A DNA stretch of 35,788 nucleotides. It comes from an uncultured Bacillota bacterium. GTDB taxonomy: Bacteria > Bacillota_I > Bacilli_A > RF39 > UBA660. Of this stretch, positions 19,904 to 25,672 are shown piece by piece. The notes below the pieces were generated by a model. It did no database searches. It was not told the DNA's origin and was given only the letters and a program-made list of their open reading frames with translations. Within the stretch, counting starts at the first letter, position 1, and each line of letters opens with the position of its first letter. The translations under genes were made by a program, and so were the position numbers. The stretch spans positions 1 through 35,788 of the forward strand of contig CAMXBB010000001.1 in NCBI GenBank assembly GCA_947179265.1. Reading direction: 5' to 3'.

Positions 19904-22900
19904 ATGATGGATGAAAAACTTTTAAGATTCTTTAGGAAGATAAACTTTAATGATGTATTTGCTTTTGAAAATGCTAAATTACAAGATGTAGTTGTAAATC
20001 GAAAAAATAATACTTGGCTTTTAAGAATAAATGCTCCAGAAGTAATAGCACTACCATCTATGATCAATTTGAAGCGAATAGCATCAGAAGGCTTGGATGA
20101 GGTTAATGAAATATTCATTGAGATGCATTATGAAAATCAAAATGAGGAAGATATTAGAGATTATTTTACTTACTTTTTAAATGCTACTATAAAAGACAAT
20201 CCTAGTTTAAAGAATATTGATACTGATAAGATAAGAATTGAAGATAACAAAATATTCATCGATGTTGCTTCTGATTTTGATTGTGATGTTTTGAATAGTG
20301 AATGTAAGATAATTAGAAAAAAGCTAGAAGATTATGGCTTAACGAATATTAATATTAGTTTTAAAATTGATGAGGCGGAACGTAAGAAGATTAAGGAAGA
20401 GATTGAAAAAGAGAAAAAAGATATCGTTATTCCAGTAAGAATTTCGGATACTAATAATAATGATAATAAAAAGTGGGTTCCTAAAAAGAAGGTGGAATTT
20501 CAAAGAGAAGGTGTTGTTCCTATATCTTCTATATCGAGAGAAGAAAATGCTGTCAATTTAGAAGCTTACGTATTTGATGGGGAGTTTACCCAAAGGACAA
20601 AGAAGAATGGAGAACCATTATTCTTAATTACTCTAAAAATTAGTGACAATACTTCAAGTATTTTGGCTAAAAAGTATGCTTCTGATGAAGAAGAGATGGT
20701 TAAGCTAAGCAAGGAATTAAAGAATGGTAAATGGTTTCATTTTACTGGACAAGTTAGAGAAGATTTATATGCTCATGATCTAGTCTTTAATTTTAATGCT
20801 TATGAGGAAATTGATAGTCCTGAAATTAAACGAAAAGATGAAGCCGAAGAAAAGAGAGCAGAATTACATTCACATACCATGATGAGCCAAATGGATGGCG
20901 TATGTGATGAAGTTGCTTTAGTTAAACAAGCTATTAGCTGGGGACATAAAGGAATTGCCATTACTGATCATGATTGTTGTCAATCATTTCCTCATGTTTT
21001 TGATACAGTTACAAAACATAATAAGGGTAAGAAAAAAGAATTTGATGCTAAGATTAAGGAATTAGAAGAAAGCCTTGAAGCTATCAAGGATAGTGGCAAT
21101 GAAGATGGAATTAAAGAGATAGAAAGATATATCGAAGAGACAAAAGAAGCTAAGAAAAATTATGTTCCATTTAAGGCAGGATATGGTGTTGAACTTGAAA
21201 TGTGTGAGTCATTCCTTAATGTCGTGTTTAATCCAAATGATGAATTAATTAAAGATAATACCTTCGTAGTATTCGATACAGAAACGACAGGATTTAATCC
21301 GGGGTTAGGCGATTCTTTAATCGAAATTGGTGGCGTTAAAATTTGCCATGGTGAAGTTGTAGATCGATATGATGAATTTATTAATCCTCATCATCATATT
21401 GATGAAGCTATTACATTGGTAACCGATATTAGTGATGATGATGTTAAAGATGCTGATGATGAATCAGTCGTTATCAAGAGGTTTAAAGAGTGGATTGGCG
21501 ATTGCCCATTAGTAGCTCATAATGCTAGATTCGATAAAAATATGGTCGATATGGCTTATCATAAAGCTGGGCTAGAGCCACTTAAAAATCCTATAATCGA
21601 TACTTTGATGCTATCAAGGATTATCAATAGAGATTTAAAGAGACATAGTTTAGCTGCTTTAGGAAAATTCTATGGTGTAGATACTGGAGAAGCTGATGAA
21701 GAGGCAGAGAGCAATAATGGAATATCAGGTGGAGCTAAGAAACTTCATGATGATGCATATGATGAAATTGAAGATATTCTAGTTGATGATAAGTCAATTC
21801 TTAAAGTTAAAGAAGTTACGTATGAGACAACAGATATTACTACTGAACAAAGAGTATCAAAAGTAAGAAAAGAGATCTATTTAGATACTGTTTATCTTGC
21901 AAGCAAGACTGAAGAGGTTAATGTTCAAGTTAAACTTAAGGATGATTGGGTATTAGCCAATTTTGATGGTAATGTCAAATTACATCCAGCAGAGAATATT
22001 GTAGAATTTAAATATAATAAAGATTTGATAGAAAGAAATATTAAAATATCCATCTATGTTGGTCAACACCATGGAGCAGATGTCGACTCTGAAAATACGG
22101 GATATATTTTTAGTCAAATGTTAAAACAAATCGAAGGAATTGAGAAAATAAGCGATCTTAATAATTTGGGATTATTAGAGGAAATTACCTTTAAAAATGA
22201 TCATAAAAAGTTAGGCAATATTGGTGATTTATGTACTTTCAAAAATTATATCCGAAAGCTAGAAGAAAATGAAAATCCAGATCCAAAATTTGGTAATCCT
22301 TTTGAAAAATATGATATCCATGATTATGTATGGAAGTATGAGTGGTGTCATGATGATTGGCTTCAAATGTATGAAAATATTCCAGGAAAAACATTTACTG
22401 AACATTCAGCAAATATATACGATAATTTAAAACATGTAACATTTATAGCCAAAAATCATGATGGACTTAAAAACATGTTTAAATTGATAAGTTTTGCAAA
22501 TTCTAATTTCATTCAAAGAAATGCTAAGATTCCTAGAAAGTTGATTGAAGAATATCGTGAGGGAATCCTAATTGGTTCAGCATGCTTAAATGGAGAAATA
22601 TTCTATATTGCCGAAACTCGAACTGATGAAGAGCTTGTAGAAGCTATGAAATTTTATGATTATATTGAAGTTCAGCCAATTGAAAACTATTCGCATTTAC
22701 TTCGCAATCACGATATTTCTAATATGGATCAATTGAAGGAATGTATTAAGAAGATTATTAGATGTGCTAAAAAGGCTGATAGGTTAATAGTTGCAACAGG
22801 GGACGTTCATAATATAAATGAATCAGATCGACTTTATCGTGAAATAATCGTTAATCAAAACGTTCCCGGAAAAGGAAGACATCCATTAGCTAGATATTTA

Positions 22901-25672: not shown

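Follow-up and report, generated by a model that had tools for sequence, protein, structure and literature searches.

Low-GC Gram-positive bacteria depend on PolC as their essential replicase, and the enzyme is a current target for antibiotics. Canonical enzymes of the Bacillus subtilis type (3F2B, 9QPC) are built in a single order, in which an N-terminal domain (NTD) and an OB domain precede a PHP domain that is split by a DEDDh exonuclease, followed by a palm with a zinc module, the thumb, the fingers, an (HhH)2 region and a C-terminal clamp motif. The family has been described as evolutionarily compact, with a narrow length range, the sole noted expansion being a duplication of the OB domain in Lactococcus (Timinskas et al., PMC3919608). 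Here we analyse the polC gene of an uncultured Bacillota bacterium, located on contig CAMXBB010000001.1 within a window of 35,788 nucleotides (nt), by which we mean the whole stretch of DNA under study. The product follows the canonical order from end to end, but it carries ~450 extra residues at six internal sites and reaches 1,922 amino acids (aa), compared with a median of 1,461 aa for other PolCs.

Folded, clade-restricted insertions into surface loops are known from another essential and conserved polymerase: SI1-SI3 of the beta/beta' subunits of Escherichia coli RNA polymerase evolve faster than the core, and the lineage-specific insertions of RNA polymerase have partly known regulatory roles. 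The insertions of the giant PolC differ from these in that they belong to a different enzyme and have different folds, and the RpoB and RpoC encoded in the polC window show no comparable expansion. What is new here is that the giant form is the norm of its clade, that two of its insertions (4 and 1) are older and common to sister lineages, that fold classes can be proposed for the largest insertions, and that insertion 5 lies at the site of a helix-loop-helix in the thumb of DnaE1.

An intact gene for a complete PolC

The gene is one uninterrupted open reading frame (ORF), listed from a GTG at 19898 as 1,924 codons (19898..25672, + strand, as for all features of the gene given below). This GTG falls within the AGGAAG ribosome-binding site, the ATG at 19904 comes 5 nt after that site, and the N-termini of homologues read MDxKL; we therefore place the start at the ATG, so that the coding sequence spans 19904..25672 and encodes 1,922 aa followed by a stop. 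The net charge of the whole protein is ~-83. An earlier note on this DNA, made from its letters alone, had read the gene as a polC ORF of about 1,922 aa free of stops and frameshifts, with every catalytic landmark present and in order, and both statements hold, the second by motif search, Pfam and alignment to the PolC structures. In the PDB, phmmer aligned the Enterococcus faecium PolC 9qpc (1,474 aa; E-value of 0) end to end in six blocks, with stretches of the query left unaligned between them, and the Geobacillus kaustophilus PolC 3f2b was likewise aligned end to end (7e-301). Pfam recovered a split PHP domain, RNase_T (455-593), DNA_pol3_alpha (1259-1558), the finger domain (1561-1729) and HHH_6 (1837-1916), with E-values of 5e-54 for PF07733, 5e-22 for PF17657 and 6e-14 for HHH_6.

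The individual domains were delimited by Pfam, phmmer and motifs unless stated otherwise. The N-terminal and OB domains (aa 1-310; 19904..20833) are of normal length and align to residues 53-351 of the E. faecium enzyme; PF14480 and PF01336, the families for this N-terminal/OB region, stay below the Pfam threshold in the query itself and are both carried by its homologues. In the phmmer alignment, aa 25-367 face E. faecium 53-411, and the region up to aa 367 measures 352-376 residues in ordinary PolCs. The PHP N-lobe (aa 311-367; 20834..21004) bears the HxH motif in LHSHT 321 and the DH motif in ITDHD 353, and the PHP C-lobe (aa 843-997; 22430..22894) bears H844, GSAC and the GDVH motif (GDVHN 966), so that the metal ligands are present. 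The DEDDh exonuclease sits inside the PHP domain, its RNase_T match lying between two PHP stretches: Exo I (FDTETTG 457) and Exo II (HNARFD 539) belong to aa 424-594 (21173..21685), and Exo III (HHGADVD 722-728), together with the last exonuclease helix, occupies aa 721-756 (22064..22171), as delimited by alignment, AlphaFold2 (AF2) and motifs. The conserved end of PHP and the linker to the palm (aa 1121-1211; 23264..23536) align to E. faecium 794-881. They are followed by the palm, the zinc module with its four cysteines (CPNC 1342 and CPKC 1373), the catalytic motif PDIDLNF 1401-1407 and the first thumb helix (aa 1279-1451; 23738..24256), and then by the rest of the thumb and palm, with KLDILGHDD 1553, the fingers, the (HhH)2 region and the C-terminal clamp motif QLSLF 1918-1922 (aa 1485-1922; 24356..25669). 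We conclude that the protein is a PolC, with the catalytic core, the PHP-embedded exonuclease, the NTD and OB domains, the zinc module, the (HhH)2 region and the clamp motif all in place. Its 1,922 aa lie outside the ~1,400-1,500 aa that are usual for PolC, length being a usual and not a defining property of the family.

Six insertions carry the extra length

MAFFT alignments of the query with ordinary PolCs define the limits and residue counts of the insertions. Insertion 1 (aa 368-423; 21005..21172) lies in the PHP N-lobe, where the query has 56 residues and ordinary PolCs have 5-15, a gain of ~45. Insertion 2a (aa 595-720; 21686..22063) interrupts the exonuclease just before Exo III and replaces 1-3 residues with 126, and insertion 2b (aa 757-842; 22172..22429) extends the linker that returns from the exonuclease to PHP from 10-12 to 86 residues (~75 extra). 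The PHP C-lobe receives insertion 3 (aa 998-1120; 22895..23263; 123 residues versus 5-10), the junction between PHP and palm insertion 4 (aa 1212-1278; 23537..23737; 67 versus 0), and the thumb insertion 5 (aa 1452-1484; 24257..24355; 33 versus 5-8). The total excess over ordinary PolCs is ~450 aa. The earlier note had distributed about 480 extra residues over six in-frame insertions: the six separate sites stand, excluding a single fused domain, and each proposed boundary lies within ~8 residues of ours once a +2 offset in numbering is applied, the total alone having been set slightly too high.

The giant form is the norm in its clade

A homologue search over 5.8 billion proteins, from which the best 120 clusters were taken (59-89% identity), returned giants almost exclusively: all but one of these clusters measure 1,875-1,950 aa, the exception being a fragment of 1,692 aa. 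A scan of one genome per species yielded 34 loci with the same giant gene, in metagenome-assembled genomes (MAGs) from rumen or from the gut of human, mouse, rabbit, goat, deer and chicken, under the names "Bacilli bacterium", "Firmicutes bacterium CAG:582", "uncultured Tenericutes" and "Candidatus Coprovivens excrementavium". The genus Ca. Coprovivens is placed in the GTDB order RF39, family CAG-1000 (PMC8035907); the literature on "CAG-582" gave no order assignment. Because the architecture recurs in >120 independent homologue clusters and in 34 species-level genomes, an artefact of assembly is excluded. The 119 giants that we aligned carry all six insertions with gaps of at most 2%, and deep-branching giants lack ~20 residues within insertion 2a.

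Outside the clade the picture is different. An exhaustive phmmer search of 1.84 billion representatives at 50% identity with query aa 320-1290, in which the giants collapse into one representative, gave among its best 150 matches 76 other full-length PolCs with a median of 1,461 aa, an interquartile range of 1,429-1,491 aa and a maximum of 1,683 aa. Together with the compactness reported for the family (PMC3919608), these data show that such lengths are not usual among PolCs. We conclude that the giant form is real, and that what is exceptional for the PolC family is the rule within this clade. No published description of a giant PolC and no paper joining "PolC" with "RF39" was found in the literature collection searched, and the protein is an apparently undescribed form of a well-known enzyme.

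Other PolC lineages carry expansions of their own that are unrelated to these: P0123 (1,631 aa) is longer by ~194 residues within the exonuclease region, the N-terminal region is ~190 aa longer in P0127, P0145 and P0177 (1,607-1,642 aa), and P0160 and P0225 are counted among the PolCs with such expansions. Because of such cases, PolC length appears less uniform in metagenomes than in the 2014 survey.

Within the giants, the insertions are less conserved than the core, with identities to the query of 0.49-0.64 in the insertions, 0.77-0.89 in the core and 0.49 in the N-terminal region (119 giants). Every insertion nevertheless has residues conserved in at least 95% of the sequences, and in three genome pairs the proportion of nonsynonymous differences (pN, 0.11-0.37) lies far below that of synonymous ones (pS, 0.53-0.89) in each of them. 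These data demonstrate that the insertions are kept under purifying selection. The expansion is also specific to PolC, since RpoB (1,217 aa), RpoC (1,234 aa), RuvB and the DnaE of the clade (968-975 aa) show no comparable inflation.

Predicted folds of the insertions

Submitted to Pfam as single sequences, none of the insertions gave a significant match. We describe them from profiles, from sequence features and from two AF2 models of fragments, built on 57-sequence alignments and covering aa 592-845 (mean predicted local distance difference test score, pLDDT, 81.6) and aa 985-1290 (mean pLDDT 84.4); inside the modelled insertions the pLDDT is 85-95. Insertions 3 and 5 are the only basic ones (median isoelectric point, pI, ~9), and the others are acidic.

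Insertion 3 is predicted to fold into five helices followed by a beta-hairpin (H-H-H-H-H-E-E; pLDDT 90-95), which is a winged-helix topology, and is mildly basic (median pI 8.8). Three lines of comparison lead to BrxC, an AAA+ ATPase of the bacteriophage exclusion (BREX) defence system: the profile of the insertion matched BrxC residues 470-550 in the PDB (E=0.003), 10 of 18 members matched the PADLOC BrxC model at model positions 460-537 (best 2e-6), and Foldseek superposed the predicted fold on BrxC with a root-mean-square deviation of 2.9-3.4 A over ~100 columns (probability 0.99), the next matches being the winged helices of Fur/Zur, ArsR, MukE and HrcA. The 18 insertion 3 sequences matched 34 Pfam families at E<=1, and PF25791 (BREX_BrxC_wHTH) is not among the 25 of these that were listed; its sole match, sub-threshold and probably spurious, was to insertion 1 (E=0.066). 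From the model and the profiles, insertion 3 is best read as a domain of winged helix-turn-helix (wHTH) type, related to wHTH1 of BrxC, which it resembles over BrxC residues ~460-550. It differs from BrxC in that the wHTH stands alone in a PHP loop of a polymerase, without the AAA+ domain, and no BREX genes occur in the polC window.

Insertion 2a begins with an acidic linker (~595-612), disordered in the AF2 model, and continues into a predicted all-beta domain of ~108 aa (aa ~611-719) with nine strands and no helices (pLDDT 85-90). The last strand ends in the model at residue 719, 3-4 residues ahead of the catalytic Exo III histidine, His723. Foldseek of the aa 592-845 model against the PDB and viral models gave no match at E<=1e-3, and the insertion profile gave none against PDB sequences; the weak Foldseek matches are nearly all immunoglobulin (Ig)-like (titin, PKD, cadherin, CD22), and 2 of 18 members matched the Ig-like Pfam family FixG_C at 4.6e-5. 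As far as the model goes, the domain is a putative Ig-like sandwich that has no close relatives. Its loops hold the invariant residues K668 and T669 as well as L693, H694, A696 and N698 (L693-H694-x-A696-x-N698). Insertion 2b is a Trp-rich alpha/beta module with helices and small strands (pLDDT 85-92), for which Foldseek found no fold match in the PDB or viral libraries, and its motif LQMYENIPxKT 820-830 is nearly invariant. A zinc site in insertion 2b was considered and ruled out, the module having one conserved cysteine and no conserved set of four Cys/His.

Insertion 1, read by eye, looks like a charged stretch of two helices joined by an SGNEDG turn, in which V369, T370, N373, K374, K377 and K378 are at least 95% conserved. 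Insertion 4 is acidic and is modelled as four helices (pLDDT ~90).

Insertion 5 lies between the two thumb helices, is basic and contains the conserved KD-LKK 1472-1477. Ordinary PolCs lack the thumb helix-loop-helix of Thermus aquaticus DnaE (Taq 513-552), an element that contacts duplex DNA in DnaE1 (Timinskas et al., PMC3919608). In the query, the phmmer alignment to T. aquaticus DnaE runs unbroken across insertion 5, opposite Taq ~516-552, and the palm-thumb segment measures 219 residues compared with 227 in DnaE1. Insertion 5 thus appears, from alignment, to occupy the site of the DnaE1 thumb helix-loop-helix, in the same place and at similar length, although sequence similarity over the element itself is minimal. 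None of the other PolCs examined has it, which suggests that it was gained secondarily and not retained.

Intermediate forms point to stepwise growth

Sister forms of the giants carry part of the set. PolCs of 1,518-1,553 aa from related uncultured Bacilli (P0122 and P0365 type) have insertion 4 only, and those of 1,555-1,601 aa (P0271 and P0289 type) have insertions 1 and 4, with small "seeds" of 9-18 residues at the 2a site and 9 residues at the insertion 3 site. These insertions occupy the same sites as in the giants and are homologous to them by hidden Markov model (HMM): the HMM of the giant-clade insertion 4 matched P0271 (2e-13) and P0122 (1.6e-6), and that of insertion 1 matched the P0271 locus (E=3.6e-4). 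The intermediates share the dnaE-polC synteny with some giants and differ from all of them in lacking insertions 2a, 2b, 3 and 5. No PolC forms of 1,700-1,850 aa were seen in the set surveyed. In a neighbour-joining tree of 1,354 core columns, from which the insertions were left out, the giants are monophyletic (100/100) and the form with insertions 1 and 4 is their sister (100/100). As judged from these sequences, growth was stepwise, insertions 4 and 1 coming first and 2a, 2b, 3 and 5 being added later on one unsampled branch. Insertion 4 may be the oldest, followed by insertion 1, an order that the tree does not firmly fix. When the insertion HMMs were run against all ORFs of the window and of 38 loci, only polC was matched, which indicates that there is no paralogous donor gene nearby.

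Two further forms were also noted. P0303 and P0342 (~1,502 aa) have insertion 1 without insertion 4, an apparent secondary loss. P0124 (1,172 aa) has insertions 1 and 4 and seemingly lacks the whole exonuclease, either because the sequence is fragmentary or misassembled or because this form has no Exo domain.

Proposed function and alternative explanations

The interpretation that we favour, at a probability of roughly three in four, is that the protein is a genuine replicative PolC with an unchanged core, to which six vertically inherited, folded modules have added surfaces that would bind DNA or partner proteins. With its catalytic machinery and clamp motif intact and its gene in housekeeping synteny, the polC product is taken to be the ordinary working replicase of the cell. 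The organism is an uncultured low-GC gut member of the class Bacilli, and its PolC combines the polymerase with a built-in proofreading exonuclease, the modules being set into surface loops of PHP and exonuclease, of the junction between PHP and palm, and of the thumb. In the E. faecium enzyme, the exonuclease lies just below the thumb (PMC12592400). The two basic modules, one a winged helix like that of BrxC and the other an extension that gives the thumb a DnaE1 length, probably add DNA contacts. The acidic Ig-like domain appears in the model to be rigidly wired to the catalytic histidine of Exo III, and this domain with its acidic linker, the Trp-rich module and the four-helix module would probably provide partner-binding surfaces or an intramolecular scaffold around the proofreading site. 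The enzyme would then act as an ordinary clamp-tethered PolC with extra surfaces for handling DNA and protein. A bolder version, which we hold to be rather improbable, is that insertions 2a, 2b, 3 and 5 together form one new unit around the primer terminus and the exit path of the duplex. If so, the unit would alter the holding of DNA or the switching between synthesis and proofreading, or would replace a partner lost in reduced genomes, and the clade would replicate with a differently organised PolC holoenzyme.

Several points weigh against this interpretation or against parts of it. A BrxC 1-551 construct did not bind DNA, and the role of wHTH1 is unsettled (PMC13326643). The Ig-like assignment stands on weak, consistent matches and on topology, and the Foldseek E-values are not significant for either AF2 model (best 4.4e-2 and 6.7e-3). 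The positions of the modules relative to DNA, clamp and thumb are likewise predictions from fragments and sequence. In their pace of evolution the insertions are close to the N-terminal domain, which is poorly conserved, and the ratio of nonsynonymous to synonymous substitution rates (dN/dS), ~0.05 in the core, is ~0.07-0.4 in the insertions, dS being saturated and these ratios rough. In the history, the placement of the forms with insertion 4 only has a support of 47/100; given this value and the existence of forms with insertion 1 only, the data do not firmly fix which of insertions 4 and 1 was gained first, or whether a loss took place. Finally, the assignment of the clade to RF39 stands on one named relative.

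The main rival to a replicase with functional modules is that the insertions are functionless expansions of surface loops, spread by drift in small host-associated populations and retained by a constructive-neutral ratchet, in that removing a folded insert would destabilise its host domain. This would suit the faster evolution of the insertions compared with the core (identity ~0.5 versus 0.8-0.9, higher dN/dS), the lack of any match to a known functional family for five of the six, the apparent loss of insertion 4 in P0303 and P0342, and the unrelated expansions of P0123, P0127, P0145 and P0177, which suggest that PolC loops tolerate inserts. However, the length stays almost constant over 59-89% identity with gaps of at most 2%, pN is well below pS in all six insertions, and RpoB, RpoC and the clade DnaE are not inflated in the same way. 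Nor is the charge random, the wHTH and the thumb extension alone being basic, and core packing by itself poorly explains invariant or near-invariant loop motifs such as K668-T669, LHxAxN 693-698, LQMYENIPxKT and KD-LKK. Length constancy, loop motifs and charge pattern thus argue against functionless expansion, which we consider unlikely while taking it seriously.

The giant could also be a specialised paralogue, a second, non-replicative PolC-like enzyme in cells whose replicase is an ordinary PolC encoded elsewhere, and rare genomes with two PolCs are indeed on record (Timinskas et al., PMC3919608, Table 1). This is very unlikely for a protein whose catalytic, zinc, clamp-binding and PHP motifs are intact and whose core has a dN/dS of ~0.05 (subject to the saturation noted above), all the more as its gene keeps housekeeping company, by rpoBC and ruvAB or directly after dnaE, the giants nest, as orthologues would, in a graded PolC series drawn from MAGs of related Bacilli, and no PolC of ordinary length above 55% identity appears among the closest homologues listed. 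That the extra length stems from inteins or from mobile insertions of another kind, or is an artefact of assembly or of a frameshift, can be practically dismissed, even though inteins are known in DnaE-type Pol III alpha and insertion 3 (123 aa) is near the size of a mini-intein. Neither the whole protein nor the insertions gave Hint/intein matches in Pfam, and the junctions are unlike those of inteins, with no Cys/Ser/Thr in first place or at +1 and no terminal His-Asn: insertion 3 starts with Tyr and is followed by Ile, and insertion 2a starts with Gly-Glu and is followed by Gln-His-His. Since collections of 50,697 phage and 72,556 plasmid records gave no tblastn match to insertions 3 and 2a-2b, there is no sign of a recent mobile-element origin. 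The clusters that repeat the architecture come from different hosts and assemblers, and the insertions can be aligned over their whole length and have evolved together with the gene that carries them.

A common gut and rumen clade has enlarged its PolC by a third and left the catalytic core untouched, and living intermediates preserve the first two steps, the gains of insertions 4 and 1. It offers a natural experiment in how an essential machine gains domains, among them one placed beside the proofreading histidine and one related to a domain of a phage-defence ATPase. Should the modules prove functional, they would point to contacts within the replisome that model organisms do not show.

Inhibitor pocket and genomic neighbourhood

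The pocket for ibezapolstat and ACX-801 has been mapped in E. faecium PolC (PMC12592400). Its four aromatic residues H1185, F1276, H1280 and Y1284, together with Y1274, are all conserved in the query, where alignment places the pocket segments at GLSHGTD (aa 1649-1655; 24848-24868) and KYMFPKAHATAY (aa 1744-1755; 25133-25168). Judging from this conservation, the clade would be expected to respond to these inhibitors, and its commensals may be collateral targets of PolC inhibitors.

In the window, polC follows rpoB, rpoC and a variable segment and precedes ruvA and ruvB; in other members the order is dnaE-polC. Nearly all ORFs of at least 90 aa in the window (1-35788) lie on the + strand, the GC content is 26-37%, and from the second 1-kb segment onwards the GC skew is positive throughout, which is consistent with a leading-strand block of housekeeping genes. 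The dnaE gene found directly upstream of polC in some giants and in the lineage with insertion 4 only is DnaE3-like (968-975 aa; L008 2323-5229, L032 2308-5220, L036 677-3604). Its product is not expanded, and contains PHP, Pol3, finger, HhH and OB domains and no C-terminal domain.

The variable segment between rpoC and polC holds an ORF of 402 aa (18287-19495, +) without Pfam or NCBIfam match. It has counterparts of 28-32% identity in three other loci (L010, L019, L031) and is missing in the closest relative, L001, where rpoC ends ~500 bp before polC. A role as a conserved partner of polC was ruled out for this ORF, which is poorly conserved and absent from the closest relative. Between ruvA and ruvB, an ORF of 170 aa (26567-27079, +), also without family match, recurs in L001 at 57% identity and weakly in L006.

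The region between the 402-aa ORF and polC (19525-19795, +) contains a ~230-nt candidate for a small RNA or leader. Its features are a site resembling a promoter (TTGCAA-18-TATAAT), a 5' hairpin that is invariant (GGGTA...TACCC), the box ATGGGG, a stretch rich in CA where ACAACA and CAACAAGA repeats cluster, with three exact copies of ACAACA inside 40 nt, and a terminator hairpin of 12 bp with a T-run. No Rfam match was obtained at E<=1, and RNAalifold recovered both hairpins, with no covariation. We regard it as a candidate for an undescribed small RNA or leader; the alternative reading is a short leader ORF starting from ATGGGG. The same layout is found directly upstream of polC in six other loci (L001, L031, L007, L030, L019 and L010), at 68-82% identity.

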